A DNA stretch of 44,723 bases. Origin: Escherichia phage vB_EcoS_fFiEco02. The notes beneath the pieces are model-generated. The model made no database searches, had not been told where the DNA came from, and saw nothing but the letters and a program-made list of their open reading frames with translations. The stretch lies in sequence record NC_073316.1; one strand, given 5' to 3'. Shown here piece after piece: positions 5,015 to 39,258 of the stretch. The position numbers and the translations under genes were made by a program. Every line of letters starts with the position of its first letter. Position 1 is the stretch's first letter.

Positions 5015-5018
5015 TAAA

Positions 5019-5048
5019 AGGCCCCATAATGGGGCCTTAGTTTTATTT
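5019..5048. terminator. bidirectional terminator between convergent genes
   Basis: hairpin aggcccca-taa-tggggcct followed by tagttttattt; A/T-rich on both sides. Confidence 0.55.
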
Positions 5049-5564
5049 AAATCGCGCAGGCATTAACACCATAAAGGCCGTGTTTGAAAATTGTATTTTG
5101 CATCCTCTGGTTTGGTCCTGGAAATCGAAACGAGCAATTTCATTTTTGTATGCCTTAGAAATCTTGTACGCGTCTGCCAAATAGCGCAGAGTGAACCCTA
5201 TACTGTCGACAACACCCGGTGTGATGTGCGCCACGCGTCTCCAGTCAGGAAAGTTTCCTTCTACAACATCTACCGGAAGTGTACATATAAGCGCACGATT
5301 ATCGTCATAGAAAGATACACTGCCGTTGTCGTGGTTTACCTCTGCGTAGTTAAATTTAGAAGGCTCTCTCCCTTTGATGTCTATGAGAGTCCCTTTCTCA
5401 ACGTTGGTCTTCACATTGTCGCAGAACAATCTATGACCGTCCGTAGACACTATCAATCCTTCAGGGTCTATGTAAAAAGCGTTCAAATAGTAGCGAACAT
5501 CATTTTTAGCCCTGCATATTTTCGCCCCTACATACGCAGGGAAAGTAATTACTGTAGTAACCAT
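5043..5564 (-). CDS. hypothetical protein (moron with own promoter)
   Basis: 173 aa ORF on the opposite strand to the structural genes, with SD aggaga and its own strong promoter; no recognisable motif. Confidence 0.55.
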   Translation of the reverse strand: MVTTVITFPAYVGAKICRAKNDVRYYLNAFYIDPEGLIVSTDGHRLFCDNVKTNVEKGTLIDIKGREPSKFNYAEVNHDNGSVSFYDDNRALICTLPVDVVEGNFPDWRRVAHITPGVVDSIGFTLRYLADAYKISKAYKNEIARFDFQDQTRGCKIQFSNTAFMVLMPARFK

Positions 5565-5620: not shown

Positions 5621-5686
5621 ACTATTTGTTTACGTATTCCAGTTATTCCACTCAATTGTAAACGTTGGAATAAACTATTCGAATAG

Positions 5687-5715
5687 TTGACTTTTCACTG
5701 AAAATATGATAAGCT
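5687..5715 (+). promoter_or_regulatory. promoter TTGACT-N17-TAAGCT of structured RNA A
   Basis: near-identical to 37525-37553 (TTGACTTTT.ACT.AAAATATG.TAAGCT); palindrome CTATTCGAATAG directly upstream. Confidence 0.5.
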
Positions 5716-5721
5716 CCACCT

Positions 5722-5918
5722 GAGCTTGTGAAGTATGAACAAGCGACCGCGGCGCGGGCAGGTAACGGAGCGGGACGTAAGTCCTGAGTGTAGTTACGCT
5801 GACGCGTTCGGAAGGGCCATACTCTATTGCTTGTGTAAAAAGTAACTGGTTTACTGAGATTACGCCGTTTCTATGTTTAAATGATAAGGACTAGCGCCCC
5901 GCTTTAAGGCGGGGCTTT
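5722..5918 (+). ncRNA. structured RNA element A (paralog of 37560-37794); candidate cis-acting antiterminator-like RNA or small RNA
   Basis: about 110 nt core conserved with copy B; stems GCTTGT/ACAAGC, CAG-GTAAC/GTTAC-g-CTG and GGAC-GTAA-GTCC show compensatory changes relative to B; ends at hairpin gccccgc-tttaag-gcggggc + ttt; the only ORF inside is not conserved in B. Confidence 0.5.
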
Positions 5919-5939
5919 ACTTATCGAGAAAGGGGAAAC

Positions 5940-6326
5940 ATGAATCTTAAAGCAACTGTCGTAGCGGGAGCATGTTTCATCATCCTGTTATATGCGCACG
6001 GCTACTATCAATACCGCAGCGGCTGGGGTGAAGGCCGTGCTAATCTCGTTTCGCAGCAACAGCAGAAAGCACAGGCTGAGCTGACGAAGAAAACACAACG
6101 GCAGCAGCAGGATGAATCAAAGGCCGCCGCTGCTGACAACGAAGGCAAGACGAAATCAGAGGTGATTACCCGTGAAGTCGTTAAGTACATTAAAACGCCT
6201 GGCCGCAGCGTGTGCACTTTCGACGATGCTCGCGTCCTGCTCAAGTCCCACGCCGTTGTCAACGCCAATTCCATCCCCGGATACGACGATGATGCAGCCG
6301 CCGTGCAAACTGGCACCGCCAAGTAG
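5940..6326 (+). CDS. i-spanin (Rz-like)
   Basis: 128 aa; N-terminal transmembrane segment (VVAGACFIILLYAHGYY), Q/K-rich coiled-coil region; contains the start of a +1-frame lipoprotein ORF. Confidence 0.65.
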   Translation: MNLKATVVAGACFIILLYAHGYYQYRSGWGEGRANLVSQQQQKAQAELTKKTQRQQQDESKAAAADNEGKTKSEVITREVVKYIKTPGRSVCTFDDARVLLKSHAVVNANSIPGYDDDAAAVQTGTAK

Positions 6327-7221: not shown

Positions 7222-8271
7222 ATGGCAATTACCACTATCGGCGATATCGTAACTGGCAACATCCCGGTCCTGGCGTCTTATATGACCGAAGACCCGGTAG
7301 AAAAAACAGCGTTCTTCCAGTCCGGTATTCTGACCCCGACTCCGTACGCCGCTGAGATTGCCCGTGGCCCGTCCAACATCGCCAACATTCCTTTCTGGAA
7401 AGCGATTGATACTTCTATTGAGCCTAATTACTCGAACGACGTGTACCAGGACATCGCTACCCCGCGTAATGTGCAAACCGGTGAGATGATGGCCCGCGTT
7501 GCGTACCTGAACGAAGGTTTTGGTCAGGCTGATTTGACTGTCGAACTGACCAGCCAGAACCCGCTGCAATCCGTAGCATCCCGTCTGGGTAACTTCTGGC
7601 AACGCCAGGCGCAACGCCGTCTAATTGCTACCGCGCTCGGTCTGTACAACGACAACGTAGCCGCTACCGATGCTTACCACGAGAAGGATGACATGGTTAT
7701 CGACGTGTCTGCTACTATGGGCTTCGACGCAGGCGCATTCATCGACGCTACCCAGACTATGGGTGATGCGCTGATGGGCAACGGTGGCGAGGTGCTGGGC
7801 GCTATCGCGATGCACAGCTTCGTTTATGCGCAGGCGCGTAAGCAGCAGCTTATCGACTTCATCAAAGATGCCGACAACGACACCTTGTTCGCCACCTACC
7901 AGGGCTACCGTGTGATTGTTGACGACAGCATGACCGTAGTTGGTACTGGCGATAGCCGTAAGTTCATTTCTATCATCTTCGGCAACGGTGCTATCGGTTA
8001 CGGTGAAGGCAATCCGTCCAACCCGCTGGAATACGAACGCGAAGCGTCTCGCGGTAACGGTGGCGGCGTCGAAACCCTGTGGACTCGTAAGGCCTGGCTG
8101 CTGCACCCGTTTGGTTACAGCTTCACCAGCGCGGTAATCACTGGCAACGGCACCGAGACTGTCGCACGTTCTGCCTCCTGGCAGGACCTGGCGAACGCCT
8201 CCAACTGGAACCGTGTTGTTGATCGTAAGCATGTACCGATTGCATTTCTGGTAACTGGTGTCGGTGCTTAA
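7222..8271 (+). CDS. major capsid protein (putative)
   Basis: 349 aa ORF after scaffold, followed by a strong terminator; position and size typical of HK97-fold capsid protein. Confidence 0.7.
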   Translation: MAITTIGDIVTGNIPVLASYMTEDPVEKTAFFQSGILTPTPYAAEIARGPSNIANIPFWKAIDTSIEPNYSNDVYQDIATPRNVQTGEMMARVAYLNEGFGQADLTVELTSQNPLQSVASRLGNFWQRQAQRRLIATALGLYNDNVAATDAYHEKDDMVIDVSATMGFDAGAFIDATQTMGDALMGNGGEVLGAIAMHSFVYAQARKQQLIDFIKDADNDTLFATYQGYRVIVDDSMTVVGTGDSRKFISIIFGNGAIGYGEGNPSNPLEYEREASRGNGGGVETLWTRKAWLLHPFGYSFTSAVITGNGTETVARSASWQDLANASNWNRVVDRKHVPIAFLVTGVGA

Positions 8272-8286
8272 GGTTAATATATAATC

Positions 8287-8311
8287 GAGAGGGACTTCGG
8301 TCCCTCTTTTC
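8287..8311 (+). terminator. rho-independent terminator after capsid gene
   Basis: hairpin gagagggac-ttcg-gtccctct followed by tttt. Confidence 0.6.
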
Positions 8312-23610: not shown

Positions 23611-25947
23611 ATGTCAAGCGGATGCGGTGACGTTTTAAGCCTGGCGGATTTACAGACCGCCAAGAAACACCAGATTTTCGAAGCCGAGGTTATCACCGGC
23701 AAATCCGGCGGTGTTGCAGGTGGCGCCGATATTGATTACGCGACAAATGCCGTTACAGGGCAGACCCAAAAGACGTTACCAGCCGTGTTGCGTGACGCTG
23801 GTTTTTCTCCGGTGTCATGGGACTTTTCCACTGGTGGTACGTTAACCGCTAATGACCGCGACAAAGTGGTGTATGACCCTGTAAGCAAGACGTGGTACTC
23901 GTATACCGGGACTCTGCCGGTTGTTGTCCCCGCATCGTTTAACCCGGTTGGTAACGCTAACTGGAAGCCGCAGACTGACCCGGATTTGCGCAATGATTTA
24001 TCCAGCACAGACAATGCGACATTAGGTGATGCCATGGTCGGCGTCCGACAACCATTTACCGACGCTGTCGGCAGGACGCAACACGATAAAAATAGAGAAG
24101 TAGTTTCCGTTCTGGACTTCTATTTAGGTACTGACCCTGATTACACAAACGCCCTTAACCGAGCGCTTACAGCTAGTAACGGGGTGCTTGTACCGCAAGG
24201 GGAGTATAGTACGTCGCTACTCTCCCACCCGACATGCTCTCTATTCGGAACAGGGGGTGGGGTTTTAAAACAATCAAACGATTCTGGAAACCACTTAATC
24301 TTTGATAAACCTGCAGGAGGGCTACTTAGCACCCTGAGTATTGTAGGAAATAAGGCAACGGACTCCACACAGGGTCAGCAGGTTTCCTTCGCCGGTGGGC
24401 AGGACGTTACTATTAAAGGTATTGATTTTAAAAATGCAAAGGGAACTGGATTTAGTTTAATAGCATACCCTAGTGGTGGGGGTCCGTCTGGATACATTGT
24501 AAGCGGCATACGGGGCGACTACTCCGGGTATGCTACAAATAAAACAGCGGGGTGCGTGATGTTTGAGTCCGCAAGTAATACTATAATCAACGATGTTATC
24601 GCCCGAAACTACCCCCAATTCGGGGCGGTTGAGTTGAAAACAGATGCTAAATGTAATGTTGTTAGTGGCGTCATTGGGCAAAGCTGTCAGCACGTTGTTT
24701 ATAATGGCACCGAGACGACCAATGCCCCTAGCAGTAATATTATCAGTAATGTTGTTGCTAATAACGCTAAGTATGCCGCTGTGGTCGCCGGCAAGGGTTC
24801 AGGTAATCTGGTGACAAATGTCGTAGCTGATTACTCCTCCTCCGAGGCCACGCAGGCACACGGCGTTACAATACAAGGCGACTATAATGCCGCTGATAAT
24901 ATTCTAATGGTTGGGTGCAGCGGAACTAATAGTTTAGGGCAAACGCAAACCGCGACTTCTATTAGGTTTTCAGACGGAGCTAGTAATAACTACGCATCGG
25001 TTTTCCCTATGTATAGTGCTTCCGGGGTTGTTACACTAGCGACAGGGGCTACCCGTAACTTTGTGGAAGTAAAGCACCCTGGACCCAAGAACAGTCTTCT
25101 TAGTTCACTATCTACTATAACCGGGGTCTCTAGCATTGATGGTACTGCCACCAGTAACGTGGTACACGCCCCCGCTATAGGACAATACATAGGGTCCATG
25201 TCCGGTAGGTTTGAGTGGTTCACTAAGTATATAGATACTTCTGCATTGCCTTTTGTGACAGCTGATAAATTCAGACTAATTTCCGATGGGGCTACATCTT
25301 TGGCTATTGGGGGAGGTACGACCTCTCAGATAAGATTACTCACATCTGATGGTACTTTTCGAACTATTTCTCTGGTTAATGGTAATTTACGCTTAGCCTC
25401 TGACACATCGGCGTATATTCAAATAGCCCCGACGGGTATTACACCATCCAGCGCAAACACCGTCGCTATCGGGTCGGCAAGTCGCGCTTTGTCCGGCGGA
25501 TTCACTCAAACAGCGTTTACGGTTACGTCCGACGAGAGAGCCAAGACACTACCCCTGGAATTAACTGACGCTATGTTAGACGCTTGGGCTGAAGTTAATT
25601 TAGTTCAATATAAGTACCTGGATAGGGTTGCAGAGAAGGGGGAGGATGCAGCTAGGTGGCACTTTGGAGTAGTAGCCCAACGAGCAATTGAGGCGTTTAC
25701 CCGGCACGGGTTGGACGCGACTAAGTACGGTTTCCTGTGCTACGATAAGTGGGAAGCGTCTCCGGAAATTATTGATGAGGAATCTGGGGAAGTATTAACA
25801 AAAGCTACGGCGGCAGGGGAGCGGTATGGTATTCGTTATGATGAGGTATTGATATTAGAGGCTGCGTTACAGCGACGTAAAGCAGCTCAGTTAGAGAAAA
25901 GGATTATAGCGCTTGAGGCATTAGTGGCTACCCTGACAAACAGTTAA
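23611..25947 (+). CDS. tailspike / tail fiber with beta-helix and C-terminal S74-type intramolecular chaperone
   Basis: 778 aa; central region with repetitive beta-helix-like short strands; C-terminal TVTSDERAKTLPLELTDAMLDAWAEVNLVQYKY… resembles the auto-cleaving chaperone of endosialidases and T5 L-shaped fibers. Confidence 0.7.
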   Translation: MSSGCGDVLSLADLQTAKKHQIFEAEVITGKSGGVAGGADIDYATNAVTGQTQKTLPAVLRDAGFSPVSWDFSTGGTLTANDRDKVVYDPVSKTWYSYTGTLPVVVPASFNPVGNANWKPQTDPDLRNDLSSTDNATLGDAMVGVRQPFTDAVGRTQHDKNREVVSVLDFYLGTDPDYTNALNRALTASNGVLVPQGEYSTSLLSHPTCSLFGTGGGVLKQSNDSGNHLIFDKPAGGLLSTLSIVGNKATDSTQGQQVSFAGGQDVTIKGIDFKNAKGTGFSLIAYPSGGGPSGYIVSGIRGDYSGYATNKTAGCVMFESASNTIINDVIARNYPQFGAVELKTDAKCNVVSGVIGQSCQHVVYNGTETTNAPSSNIISNVVANNAKYAAVVAGKGSGNLVTNVVADYSSSEATQAHGVTIQGDYNAADNILMVGCSGTNSLGQTQTATSIRFSDGASNNYASVFPMYSASGVVTLATGATRNFVEVKHPGPKNSLLSSLSTITGVSSIDGTATSNVVHAPAIGQYIGSMSGRFEWFTKYIDTSALPFVTADKFRLISDGATSLAIGGGTTSQIRLLTSDGTFRTISLVNGNLRLASDTSAYIQIAPTGITPSSANTVAIGSASRALSGGFTQTAFTVTSDERAKTLPLELTDAMLDAWAEVNLVQYKYLDRVAEKGEDAARWHFGVVAQRAIEAFTRHGLDATKYGFLCYDKWEASPEIIDEESGEVLTKATAAGERYGIRYDEVLILEAALQRRKAAQLEKRIIALEALVATLTNS

Positions 25948-34621: not shown

Positions 34622-36889
34622 CTATTCCAAATCTTCCTCTGTCGCTACCAGCATTTCATTCGGTTCGTATATTGTCTTCGGAATCTTGTTATCCGTTATC
34701 CTGGTGTTCAGCCTGTAACGGCCGGGTATTATCTGATTGTTTTCGTCAGTACCCGGAACAAGATACCCGGCCTCAACCATTTTCTTAATCTTCCCGCGTT
34801 CTATAGCTTCTTTGGAGTTAAACGCCTTTGCGTTGGGGTCGGACTGTGCCAGCTTATTCGCTGCGGCTACTGTGATACCTTCGTTTCCGTTGTAGGTTCC
34901 TTCCGCCAGTTCAAACGCTGCCAGTATCGTGGCTTCTGAGCTGTTGACGGCGTTCTCTACGGTTTTACGTACGTTTTCTTTACCTTCCTTAGTCAGCCCT
35001 TCTTCCCGCTCTTTCTCCTCGTCAGTTTTGAACGGCTCGAAACCCCACGGCATTAACACAAGCGCTTTGTGCGGCTCCGGCAGGTCCAGGTTTACGATTG
35101 TGCCGTATTCCTCTGTGTTACCCAGGAACTCAACCGCACGGTATTCTTTCGGCGGCGGCGCTTCACGGAACTGTACAGACTCCAGCACCATACCAACCGT
35201 CTTCTGTTGAGGTCCGTGCTTAAATTTAGAGTGGTATACATTTATCTGACGGTCGGTTGCGCGTTCAATTGTCAGTTCCACATCGACGCCTGCGTACAGC
35301 GCGCCACTGCCACGGGCTTTCTTTCCACCCTTCGGGGTATGGTGGACGACGCCTACCGCGGCTTTAGTTGTGTCGCGTACTTCTTTCATGATTGCGATAA
35401 CTTTACCCATACCGATTGCCGTTGATGAACTGTTCTCGTCGAACTTATCGATCGTCAGGGCCAGCGTCTGGTTGAGGGTGTCAAACGCAACCATGCCAAT
35501 AGGTTCATCCCCCGCAGTTTCACGCATCAACTTAATCAGGTTTTTCAGTTTGCCGACTTCACCCACGTCGATGACATGTACATAATCTTTACCTTCTTCG
35601 CCGTATTTAGCCGCAAGGGCATCGATACGTGTACGTGTAGCCGCACCACCTTCACCATCAATATAGAAGTGATGGCAACGCTGGGTATCCGCCCCGGCAA
35701 ACCGGTATCCGGAGGCACTCAGGTACATCATACCCAGTGTATAGAACGATTTATACGTGCCGGATTCCCCGACAATATCCCAGATGCAATCCGACGGCAT
35801 GTACCCTTCAACGACGAAATCAGCCTTTACCGGTTCCGGTAGCTCATCCTCTTCTGAGTCCTCGTCGCCCTCCAGGTCGTCCAGGCTGCATGAAACTGAT
35901 TCACGCGCACCCCAACCGATAGCCTCAGCCACTTTACTGAACGGCAGCCCGGTCGCATCACACACATACTTCCACACCTCTTTTGGTGGCATGCCTTCGG
36001 TTGCCGTAATGTCGGTGTCGTGAATCATGGTTACGTTAGGTGCTTCGTACCCCTCGCGCGGGAAGCACAGCAGGAAGTCATCCGGCCGCGGCGTCGGGTC
36101 GCTGTAGTTCTCTGCGTGTTCCGGCGTAGCTGGCATTTTCAGGCCGCGCGGCGTCATGATACCGCCGTACTCAAACGCCAGTGCTTCAAACGCATCAGTA
36201 AACGCGGTGCGCAGTTCTTCCGGTATCTGGTAATCCGATGCGCTGCTCACCTCGTAATCCGGTATGCCTTCCAGTAACTCATCCGGGTCAATCAGGTCGT
36301 TGCGGCGCGACCAGATAACAGTAGAGCCAACCGGCGGCAGGTACATCGGCTGAGACAGAGTGAACCCGCTGCGGTCCGCGCCCATACCTTTGAAGAAGTG
36401 CTCCAGCAATCCATGACGGACGCGGACGATGTCACCACCTTCAACCGGACGAGCCAGCGGCATGACAACACGAAAGCGCGGCGACTCATCAATATGTGAC
36501 GCCGTGGTATAGAGGCACATGGCTTTACGGCTGCGCTTAACCCGGTGCACCGCTTCCTGGTACTCTTCCGGCGTTGCACTGTCGAAGTCCAGATACGCCA
36601 GCGACGATTTGCTTACAGACGCGTCACAGCGATAAAAGAAGCCTTTACGGGCCTGCTTAAAGTCACCTGTTTCCGGGTCTTTTACGGTGCTGTGTATAGA
36701 ATCGCACGCGGCAGTGATATAACCTGGCGCGGTCTTAGGGTTAATCCCGTCGCGAACAGCATCAAGCGGCTGAATTAACTCTTTCAGGTCATCCAGTGTT
36801 GCCGTATGTGTGGTTCTGACGTTTATATCCTTTTTCTCCGCCCGCGCGTTGCGACGGGACCACGAGTAGGATAAAATTACATCGGACAT
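34622..36889 (-). CDS. primase-helicase (N-terminal primase-like domain, C-terminal RecA/DnaB-like P-loop domain)
   Basis: 755 aa; Walker A GESGTYKS, Walker B-like VAFDTLN; SD aaggaaa. Confidence 0.8.
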   Translation of the reverse strand: MSDVILSYSWSRRNARAEKKDINVRTTHTATLDDLKELIQPLDAVRDGINPKTAPGYITAACDSIHSTVKDPETGDFKQARKGFFYRCDASVSKSSLAYLDFDSATPEEYQEAVHRVKRSRKAMCLYTTASHIDESPRFRVVMPLARPVEGGDIVRVRHGLLEHFFKGMGADRSGFTLSQPMYLPPVGSTVIWSRRNDLIDPDELLEGIPDYEVSSASDYQIPEELRTAFTDAFEALAFEYGGIMTPRGLKMPATPEHAENYSDPTPRPDDFLLCFPREGYEAPNVTMIHDTDITATEGMPPKEVWKYVCDATGLPFSKVAEAIGWGARESVSCSLDDLEGDEDSEEDELPEPVKADFVVEGYMPSDCIWDIVGESGTYKSFYTLGMMYLSASGYRFAGADTQRCHHFYIDGEGGAATRTRIDALAAKYGEEGKDYVHVIDVGEVGKLKNLIKLMRETAGDEPIGMVAFDTLNQTLALTIDKFDENSSSTAIGMGKVIAIMKEVRDTTKAAVGVVHHTPKGGKKARGSGALYAGVDVELTIERATDRQINVYHSKFKHGPQQKTVGMVLESVQFREAPPPKEYRAVEFLGNTEEYGTIVNLDLPEPHKALVLMPWGFEPFKTDEEKEREEGLTKEGKENVRKTVENAVNSSEATILAAFELAEGTYNGNEGITVAAANKLAQSDPNAKAFNSKEAIERGKIKKMVEAGYLVPGTDENNQIIPGRYRLNTRITDNKIPKTIYEPNEMLVATEEDLE

Positions 36890-37524: not shown

Positions 37525-37553
37525 TTGACTTTTACTTAAAAATATGCTAAGCT
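37525..37553 (+). promoter_or_regulatory. promoter TTGACT-N17-TAAGCT of structured RNA B
   Basis: paralog of 5687-5715. Confidence 0.5.
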
Positions 37554-37559
37554 TCACTG

Positions 37560-37794
37560 AGCTTGTGAGATATCGCAAGCGACCGCGGAGCGGCAGGGAA
37601 CGCAACGCGTGCCATTAGGCACTTGAGTGTAGTTCCGCTGGCGCTTTCGGAAGGGCCAAAGTCTATTGTTAATCCCGCCTAAATACCCAAGTCACTGATA
37701 ATTAAAAGTTTATATAGTTGCCGTAAGCAAGGTAGAGAGTACTTCACTCCGCTGGGGTGGGCTAACGCCCACCCACTGCGTTGCGTACTCTTTT
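37560..37794 (+). ncRNA. structured RNA element B (paralog of 5722-5918)
   Basis: conserved core; stems GCTTG/CAAGC, CAG-GGAAC/GTTCC-g-CTG, GTGCC-ATTA-GGCAC; ends in a long hairpin + tctttt. Confidence 0.5.
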
Positions 37795-37833
37795 AAGAAA
37801 CGAAAGAATCACAACGGCAACGTAACTATTTTC

Positions 37834-37862
37834 TTGCACACCCCAACATAATAGGATACTAT
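37834..37862 (+). promoter_or_regulatory. early promoter TTGCAC-N17-TACTAT with AATAG-N4-CTATTC palindrome
   Basis: consensus-like hexamers; conserved leader …ATCGAAACGAGA… shared with 39344 and 42424 promoters. Confidence 0.6.
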
Positions 37863-37896
37863 TCACTTATCGAAACGAGACAGATGAGTGAGGGTT

Positions 37897-38995: not shown

Positions 38996-39187
38996 ATGGG
39001 TAAGTGGATTAAGTGTAGTGAGCGGATGCCGGAAAAGCTTGATGATGTGCTGGTTACTGATGGCGAGCATGTCGAGGTTAAATGGTGGAACGGTCGTATT
39101 TGGGATTGTTGGGCACCGCGTAACTCAGATATTAGTTACAAAGATGTAACTCACTGGATGCCGTTACCCGAGCCGCCGGAAGTGTGA
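38996..39187 (+). CDS. small protein resembling DUF551-type phage proteins
   Basis: C-terminal THWMPLPEPPEV, Trp-rich. Confidence 0.4.
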   Translation: MGKWIKCSERMPEKLDDVLVTDGEHVEVKWWNGRIWDCWAPRNSDISYKDVTHWMPLPEPPEV

Positions 39188-39229
39188 TGTTATATTGTAA
39201 CAATAGTTTGGGATTTTACTGAGTGACTT

Positions 39230-39258
39230 ACGCTGCTACACCGCAGCGTATCATTTTT
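39230..39258 (+). terminator. rho-independent terminator
   Basis: hairpin acgctgc-tacacc-gcagcgt + atcattttt. Confidence 0.55.

Follow-up and report, generated by a model that had tools for sequence, protein, structure and literature searches.

Sequence record NC_073316.1 of Escherichia phage vB_EcoS_fFiEco02, analysed here at its full length (the window, 44.7 kb), is by megablast and blastn a Kagunavirus-like siphophage genome of the subfamily Guernseyvirinae. This subfamily includes Escherichia phages K1G, K1H and K1ind, phages of the Bas70-73 collection and Salmonella Jersey-like phages. The relatives carry their own replication genes and have no RNA polymerase among their annotated genes; therefore, transcription should rely on the host enzyme. 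The subject of this report is an element with a core of ~110 nt that occurs at two loci of the window, in front of the structural operon (copy A) and in the early region (copy B), each time behind a promoter of the same type. An earlier note, made from the sequence of the window alone, had described both loci and proposed antitermination in the manner of the put sites of phage HK022. Its basic description, two loci with a near-identical promoter and a common core, was borne out by sequence reading, alignment and a covariance model.

Promoter A occupies positions 5687-5715 of the plus strand (-35 hexamer TTGACT at 5687-5692, TG at 5707-5708, -10 hexamer TAAGCT at 5710-5715) and promoter B positions 37525-37553 of the same strand (TTGACT at 37525-37530, TG at 37545-37546, TAAGCT at 37548-37553). 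Both have a spacer of 17 bp between the hexamers (TTGACT-N14-TGn-TAAGCT), and the spacer of B resembles that of A as well. The hexamer TAAGCT agrees with TATAAT at only three of six positions, while TG stands one base upstream of it in both copies; thus, the promoter TTGACT-N17-TAAGCT given for both loci in the earlier note can be refined to the extended -10 type. Relatives retain the TG, with A, C or G as the next base. The pattern TTGACW-N13-15-TGNTANNNT was found at these two sites only in the window (0.14 expected by chance). Judged by the position of the -10 hexamer, transcription from promoter A would start at about 5722-5723, ~7 nt past the hexamer and 2 nt before the first hairpin of the core.

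The covariance model of the core (R1), trained on 21 distinct cores, detected exactly two copies in the window, A at 5719-5832 (142 bits) and B at 37556-37671 (99 bits). No third or weaker copy was found in the window, K1H or Jersey, the next-best match in the window scoring <11 bits. Across promoter and core the two copies are identical in 76% of alignment columns. Such a search had been proposed in the earlier note. On the sequences compared here, the element is a domain of ~95-110 nt, present in paralogous copies and specific to Guernseyvirinae.

Structure prediction was run for both copies, and A and B, each folded alone, adopt one common architecture: a short hairpin at the 5′ end (P1), a joiner of 2 nt, a long and irregular stem (P2), an apical hairpin (P3) and an invariant, purine-rich tail (CGGAAGGGCC...UAUUG). 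P2 starts with CCG/CGG at its base and a bulged C; the helix GGNGCG/CGCNUU, in which two pairs are G.U, comes next, and beyond an internal loop lie CAG/CUG and GUAAC/GUUAC. The core of copy A (5722-5829, plus strand) has P1 at 5724-5729/5739-5744; the P2 closing helix CCG/CGG at 5747-5749/5809-5811 followed by the bulged C at 5750; the consensus-fold helices GGCGCG/CGCGUU at 5751-5756/5803-5808, CAG/CUG at 5759-5761/5799-5801 and GUAAC/GUUAC at 5762-5766/5793-5797; P3 at 5771-5776/5781-5786; and, 3′ of P2, the tail AAGGGCC..UAUUG at 5812-5829. The core of copy B (37559-37668, plus strand) is built like that of A, with P1 lengthened to 8 bp, GUGCC-AUUA-GGCAC as P3 and CGGAAGGGCC at 37648-37657. 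The minimum-energy fold of copy A is the consensus fold (z = -2.0), copy B folds with -49.3 kcal/mol (z = -3.9), and the consensus architecture was recovered in six of eight single-sequence folds. We found no consistent partner for a pseudoknot involving the tail. A long-range helix between the 3′ strand of P1 and a repeat past UAUUG is possible in A and Jersey types and not in B types.

Two of the differences between the copies had been read earlier as preserving base pairing, and both readings were correct: GUAAC/GUUAC in A corresponds to GGAAC/GUUCC in B, and the inner hairpin GGGAC-GUAA-GUCCU in A to GUGCC-AUUA-GGCAC in B. A third compensatory change had been overlooked, C-G to A-U (GGCGCG/CGCGUU in A versus GGAGCG/CGCUUU in B), bringing the difference between A and B to three compensatory events and a complete replacement of P3. 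The search of related phages for further covariation produced additional sequence types and supported the fold. Among relatives one pair appears as C-G, A-U and U-A, and P3 as at least five unrelated self-complementary sequences. In a model-guided alignment of 32 distinct sequences, 94.8% of cells were paired and 16 of the 29 pairs had changed on both sides; the covariation score was 0.314 versus 0.109 for shuffled alignments (reached in none of 500) and at most 0.068 with slid partners. A MAFFT-only alignment of K and B types, which was not fitted to the structure, gave 94.0% paired cells and a score of 0.161 versus 0.071 (again 0/500). Jersey-type sequences taken alone led to an identical architecture (RNAalifold). 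Thus compensatory changes back the fold in five K/B sequence types as well as in the divergent Jersey type.

As DNA, the positions of the two invariant G.U pairs would leave G.T and A.C mismatches; therefore the element should be read as RNA from the plus strand. From these sequence comparisons we consider it almost certain that the conserved unit is a structured RNA. The idea that it is a small protein gene or a structured DNA site owes its appeal to the sole open reading frame (ORF) in copy A, 5735-5845, for which several GenBank records have a ‘hypothetical protein’ annotation (for example Bas70, Bas72, Bas73 and Snoke; Jersey_08 in Jersey). This ORF encodes 36 amino acids; the earlier note, which gave it 37 codons, was right that B has no equivalent. 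A start codon or equivalent frame is absent in B and in the Jersey type. Otherwise near-identical copies differ by one-base insertions and deletions (113-117 nt) that would shift any reading frame, and substitutions compensate across helices. The protein-gene or DNA-site reading is effectively refuted by these facts, and the earlier view of an RNA and not a protein as the conserved unit stands. Given the covariation, the indels and the absence of a counterpart in copy B, we regard the annotations as spurious; the element is at present either unannotated or mis-annotated as a 36-residue hypothetical protein.

The element does not belong to any Rfam family. In the Rfam search suggested earlier, the whole window had no match to Rfam 15 at gathering thresholds, and sensitive scans of the two loci gave at best 16.2 bits at A (threshold 42) and 17.8 bits at B (threshold 60).

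Searching with the major capsid protein (tblastn), we found ~462 related records at ≥60% identity, with the copy A element in ~448 of them. Nearly every sequenced member of the subfamily thus has the element, always directly upstream of the genes for the Rz-like spanin, scaffold and capsid. The K-type element was observed in 179 phage records and the Jersey type, Salmonella phage Jersey itself included, in 269. The Jersey version occupies the same place and is far more divergent (39 bits), with P1, the middle stem and P3 all different. At the A locus of Cornellvirus FSL SP-031 there is a rearranged version (8 bits), which keeps the extended -10 promoter, the 5′ hairpin, the GUGCC/GGCAC hairpin and CGGAAGGGUC; constrained to the fold of the family, it lies 6 kcal/mol above its minimum free energy. 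Further types occur among relatives, three at the B locus (B2, B3/B4) and one variant, A′. In contig IMGVR_UViG_3300045988_039442 we found a recombinant (L046, 2217-2331) with a B2-like core at the A locus between A-type flanks, indicating that core types move between loci. The same contig carries a B-type copy (L017) in its early region; in two-copy genomes the two copies are always of different types.

Viral contigs were scanned three times with sequence patterns and metagenomes once; the only contigs recovered were Guernseyvirinae-like (~41-45 kb), soil and other matches failing the model. No match to the element was found in E. coli genomes, nor was the leader found at the corresponding place of Serratia phage ZDD2, a distant capsid relative. 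We found no paper describing the element in the literature. Overall, it is a real, previously undescribed, subfamily-wide structured RNA that heads the structural operon and has an optional second copy.

Copy A is preceded by a terminator (5018-5038) and a divergent gene and followed by an operon starting at 5940, with the Rz-like spanin, scaffold, major capsid and head/tail genes in this order. Apart from promoter A, we found no promoter-like site that would serve the operon. The core passes into a linker of 53 nt (5830-5882, plus strand), opening with a repeat of the P1 5′ strand (GCUUGUG, 5829-5835); the linker is conserved as strongly as the core in K types, and its 3′ half partly so in the Jersey type. 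Then follows a terminator-like hairpin (5883-5925, plus strand), with a lower stem GAUAAG/CUUAUC (5883-5888/5920-5925), an upper stem GCCCCGC/GCGGGGC (5896-5902/5909-5915) and the tail UUUACUUAUC. This hairpin was the top-ranked terminator-like site in the scan (-17.2 kcal/mol, z = -2.9) and has a compensatory variant, GCCCUGC/GCAGGGC, in sequence L004. The terminator placed at 5896-5918 by the earlier note was a GC-rich hairpin with a U-rich tail, as observed; the structure is, however, in two parts, and its lower stem pairs a portion of the U-rich tail. As modelled, its role as a terminator is plausible in K types and doubtful in Jersey and Cornell types. Past the hairpin lie a ribosome-binding site (5931-5936) and the ATG of the spanin (5940), and farther on an internal terminator after the capsid gene (8287-8308). 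With promoter A as the only recognisable promoter, all capsid transcription must cross the GC-rich hairpin (5896-5915, then UUUACUU).

We tentatively favour the reading of the element as a cis-acting antitermination leader, the most probable of the functions considered and still one that may well prove wrong. The RNA domain would form the very 5′ end of a transcript that starts at a dedicated sigma-70 promoter of the extended -10 type, and would act in cis on the polymerase by which it was just transcribed, either alone, like HK022 put, or with a host or phage factor, like nut. The polymerase would then pass the terminator-like hairpin 65-100 nt downstream and the terminators inside the operon. 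For copy A the target would be the operon from spanin through scaffold and major capsid to head/tail genes, for copy B the rightward early/lysis/terminase unit. We prefer this reading because the layout is put/nut-like: two diverged copies stand behind one promoter type, and a terminator-like hairpin precedes the first gene. The strongest argument comes from copy A, since all capsid transcription crosses a GC-rich, U-tailed hairpin and meets another terminator past the capsid gene.

The likeness to HK022 put is extensive at the level of arrangement. In both cases a genome has two diverged paralogous copies whose stems differ by compensatory changes; a phage promoter read by the host RNA polymerase stands upstream of each, and two adjacent irregular stem-loops are followed farther on by terminators. 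In HK022 putL begins at +2/+3 of its transcript (PMC9378689), and the element appears to do likewise, P1 and P2/P3 following ~2 nt past the position where transcription would start. This is a likeness of layout only. The put RNA is ~74 nt long, with a minor-groove triplex in stem I, an A9-G35 platform and a bulged U68 in stem II (PMC9378689); the element has ~95-110 nt, the signature residues of put could not be aligned with it, and there is no homology in sequence or structure. We located putL in the HK022 sequence (L063, minus strand, ~4316-4243) and checked the numbering against the cryo-EM paper (PMC9378689). Since Rfam has no put family, the lack of Rfam matches is uninformative about put. 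Model R1 matched neither putL nor putR; its best match in 10 kb was elsewhere (6.6 bits, E = 1.8). Membership in the put family was thus rejected, and of the put-like reading given in the earlier note the resemblance in layout remains. The carriers differ as well: the phages studied here are strictly lytic siphophages with their own replication genes, not lambdoid phages, and copy B is followed by an independent promoter. The put RNA acts in cis without protein factors through the zinc-binding domain of the beta′ subunit and suppresses both intrinsic and Rho-dependent terminators (PMC9378689).

As in lambda nutL/nutR and the rrn leaders, the sites are paired and lie in the leaders of two units, and the transcribed RNA would load onto the polymerase; unlike nut, the element conserves no short boxB-type hairpin with a GNRA-like pentaloop. 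We saw only off-frame or unconvincing ORFs for arginine-rich N-like peptides. A nut-type (boxA) identity and an RfaH/ops identity were both rejected, the motifs being at chance level and missing from the plus strand of the leaders. A similarity also exists with the lambda PR′-6S RNA-tR′ unit and StxS, where a strong promoter gives a non-coding transcript of ~195 nt that ends at a terminator just before a late operon starting with Rz/Rz1 and head genes. Lambda Q, in contrast, uses a DNA site and a sigma-dependent pause with no conserved RNA fold, whereas here RNA structure is under selection; no Q-like protein was found among the annotated genes of relatives. The EAR element (eps-associated RNA) is comparable as a structured RNA of ~100-120 nt proposed to help read-through of distal terminators. 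The element differs from EAR and the other Rfam leader families in that no Rfam threshold was reached (16-18 bits at best versus thresholds of 42-60).

A riboswitch-like or attenuator leader, in which a ligand or factor switches the terminator through mutually exclusive pairing, could also be suggested by the general pattern of a conserved structured domain and, 3′ of it, a variable ‘expression platform’ closing with a terminator-like hairpin. Duplexes of core or linker with the 5′ arms of the terminators were no better than those of shuffled sequences (fraction of shuffles at least as good, 0.11-1.0 in A, B and Jersey types), and alternative pairing of this kind was rejected. The terminator, moreover, is 65-100 nt away from the core, and there is no match to an Rfam family. 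While the core is conserved, the downstream hairpins differ completely among A, B, Jersey and Cornell types. A core independent of the hairpin sequence and lacking alternative pairing fits a mechanism that does not depend on the particular terminator and argues against a riboswitch, which we consider very improbable.

Next to antitermination, one should consider another role in cis for the 5′ untranslated leader, such as protection of the 5′ end, processing by RNase III or RNase E, or protein binding that affects translation or stability. Emory, Bouvet and Belasco reportedly showed in 1992 that a hairpin near the 5′ end blocks 5′-end-dependent decay; in K-type copies P1 would begin ~2 nt past the start of the transcript. 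In K, Jersey and Cornell types a long helix in two parts precedes the ribosome-binding site (a perfect 17-bp helix in sequence L009), and phage T7 RNase III sites resemble such helices. The element also heads the most highly expressed operon, and the leader is conserved as a whole. Nevertheless, the invariant part is the base of P2 with the tail and not P1, which may lie partly upstream of the start in Jersey and Cornell types, and simple protection of a 5′ end needs no conserved structure of ~100 nt. Copy B, which has a terminator and another promoter between it and the genes, would be left unexplained. We think a leader of this sort improbable, though less so than a riboswitch by far.

The surroundings of copy B are of a different kind. 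Its linker (37669-37733, plus strand) is C-rich and G-poor in the first half (AAUCCCGCCUAAAUACCCAAGUCACU) and from 37694 on consists of sequence common to phages without a B core. The C-rich part, 37672-37698, is kept among B, B2 and B3 types; its composition would suit a Rho-loading site or a small RNA with a C-rich seed. The linker runs into a long-stem terminator, T_B (37734-37797, plus strand), with ~22 pairs, some interruptions and then UUUU (-32.6 kcal/mol, z = -3.95). It is 97% identical in K1H, which has no B core. A second promoter-like site, read from the sequence, follows at 37834-37862 on the plus strand (TTGCAC at 37834-37839, N17, TACTAT at 37857-37862); it would supply the early ORFs (37888 onward) without recourse to promoter B. 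The arrangement of element, terminator and operon stated by the earlier note is thus confirmed insofar as the element lies a few bases from the presumed start with a terminator-like hairpin downstream, but B is separated from the early operon by this second site. In the place of B, K1H has a consensus promoter (TTGACA-N17-TAAAAT) and an unrelated non-coding leader of ~250 nt (L047, 34870-35100), and in Jersey the early region is arranged in a way analogous to K1H. The K1H leader opens with AUCGAAGGACC, a sequence similar to the invariant CGGAAGGGCC motif, perhaps by chance.

A number of observations weigh against antitermination. Copy B is optional, occurring in the early region of ~41 of the 179 records and absent in K1H; where it occurs, it is followed by the long-stem T_B and then by a separate promoter before the first early ORF. 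The unrelated leader of K1H runs into T_B and the second downstream promoter just as copy B does in the window, and the internal early terminator at 39229-39250 is retained with or without copy B. In one study of a Gram-positive plasmid system, long-stem terminators are reported to resist processive antitermination (PMC10325885). In Jersey and Cornell types the tail after the leader hairpin is not U-rich and is fully paired, so that there may be little termination to overcome. The whole of leader A is 97-99.8% conserved in 45 distinct K-type sequences, versus 83-96% for the spanin ORF, while a put-like mechanism has no need for a conserved linker. No boxA (GCUCUUUAACAA-like) was found on the plus strand in 5720-5939 or 37557-37887, the window having 34 matches with at most three mismatches versus 38.8 expected. 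The ops element GGCGGTAGnnTG is likewise absent from the plus strand of the leaders, near matches at 5740-5751 and 37576-37587 (two mismatches) being on the minus strand; 43 matches were counted in all versus 40.4 expected. Finally, the sole Kagunavirus transcriptome study gives gene-level counts only (PMC12645636).

Some of these observations are what one would expect if the element were a separate small RNA made in abundance (~195 nt for A, ~235 nt for B), extending from a promoter to a terminator of its own and acting in trans. Its invariant single-stranded tail would base-pair with a target, or else the RNA would bind or titrate a protein of the host or the phage; the late operon would then be expressed by leak-through past the terminator. 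Copy B in particular is a full promoter-RNA-terminator unit, ending in a very stable long stem with UUUU, and the genes downstream have a promoter of their own. B can be missing or replaced by another leader before the same terminator, and phages without it retain the same internal terminators. Leader A, including linker and hairpin, is more conserved than the adjoining coding sequence. A precedent is found in a report in which early termination at PR′ gives a short transcript that can act as a regulatory small RNA (PMC7547250).

By the features expected of an independent RNA gene, the copies part company: B has its own promoter, T_B and a separate promoter downstream, whereas A shares the sole promoter of the operon. 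Copy A always occupies one position, at the head of the capsid operon as its obligatory leader, and is never free-standing. In Jersey and Cornell types the 3′ hairpin has no free U tract, so that processing would be required for a defined 3′ end. No complement of the invariant tail was found in the phage genome, E. coli genomes have no sequence related to the element, and a long irregular helix whose base is conserved is a more usual feature of RNAs that bind proteins or polymerase than of seed-type small RNAs. The trans-acting small RNA named as the alternative in the earlier note thus suits the layout of B at least as well as antitermination does and that of A only in part. We take it to be possible if unlikely, and somewhat likelier than the stabilising or processing leader.

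The fold, its conservation, its position and the lack of a second recognisable promoter for operon A are observations, whereas the transcript start, termination at the hairpins and any influence on elongation are inferred. Among the candidate functions antitermination in cis ranks first, and the small RNA and the stabilising or processing leader are close rivals. Our confidence in antitermination is limited because copy B fits a small-RNA gene at least as well and because the whole leader is conserved. The antitermination reading of the earlier note was thus a reasonable proposal, although it missed the features of copy B that speak for something else. A more far-reaching proposal is that of an independent second family of RNA-only processive antiterminators, in which a nascent RNA of ~100 nt would bind the RNA polymerase of E. 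coli or Salmonella and serve the whole structural operon of strictly lytic, non-lambdoid phages. The invariant CCG/CGG helix, the C bulged from it, both G.U pairs and the CGGAAGGGCC tail could form the polymerase-binding surface. We hold this proposal to be doubtful. If true, it would add a new, unrelated RNA family acting on the E. coli polymerase, show the number of RNA routes to a terminator-resistant state, and provide material for structural work and a part for synthetic biology. To our knowledge, control of elongation by RNA alone is known from very few systems, with HK022 put as the paradigm and EAR as a candidate. Whatever its function, an RNA supported by covariation stands at the head of the capsid operon in ~450 sequenced phages, and many of the carriers are under development for biocontrol of Salmonella and E. 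coli. The host and several of the phages (K1G/K1H, the Bas70-73 collection, Jersey) are in standard laboratory use.

Upstream of promoter A we observed an inverted repeat, TTATTCC-N16-GGAATA (5643-5673, strand not assigned), a candidate regulator-binding site centred ~64 bp before the likely start. It is unique in the window (0 expected by chance), is not present at promoter B and is kept in Kagunavirus, Jerseyvirus and Cornellvirus, with 93-98% column conservation in the 45 distinct K-type sequences. By its position and conservation this dyad looks like a binding site for a late-gene regulator. A second TTATTCC precedes the dyad TTATTCC-N16-GGAATA(A), which was also seen in Jersey (L048, ~7228-7262) and in sequence L065 (~25408-25440). 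The -35 hexamer of Cornellvirus is poor (GTGGAT), which would agree with a promoter that depends on an activator.

The -10 hexamer of Jersey, TACGCT, recurs downstream after a gap of exactly 3 nt as the 5′ strand of P1 (TACGCT ACC TACGCT; L048, 7297-7320), and in K types TAAGCT is followed by TGAGCT (window positions 5710-5730). Sigma-dependent pausing, which has been proposed for putL, could result from a -10-like element at the beginning of the transcribed region. With a start 7 nt past the -10 hexamer, P1 of the Jersey type would be partly untranscribed. The P1 5′ strand and loop recur just past UAUUG, as GCUUGUG in the K-type copy A (5829-5835) and as GCUUUCAG in Jersey.

An early record of the element is X87092 (L062), a 2.3-kb sequence of Salmonella phage MB78 from 1995, which has the Jersey-type element, unannotated, at 830-1060 between the ORFs p21 and p11.5.

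The site after T_B belongs to a second conserved promoter class, TTGCRCACCCCAAYATAATAGGRTACTAT (TTGCAC-N17-TACTAT), with copies at 37834-37862 on the plus strand and 5620-5592 on the minus strand; the latter would drive the minus-strand ORF 5043-5564. The same class is present in K1H (L047, ~35237-35265), and a variant of it in Jersey (L048, ~39171-39200).

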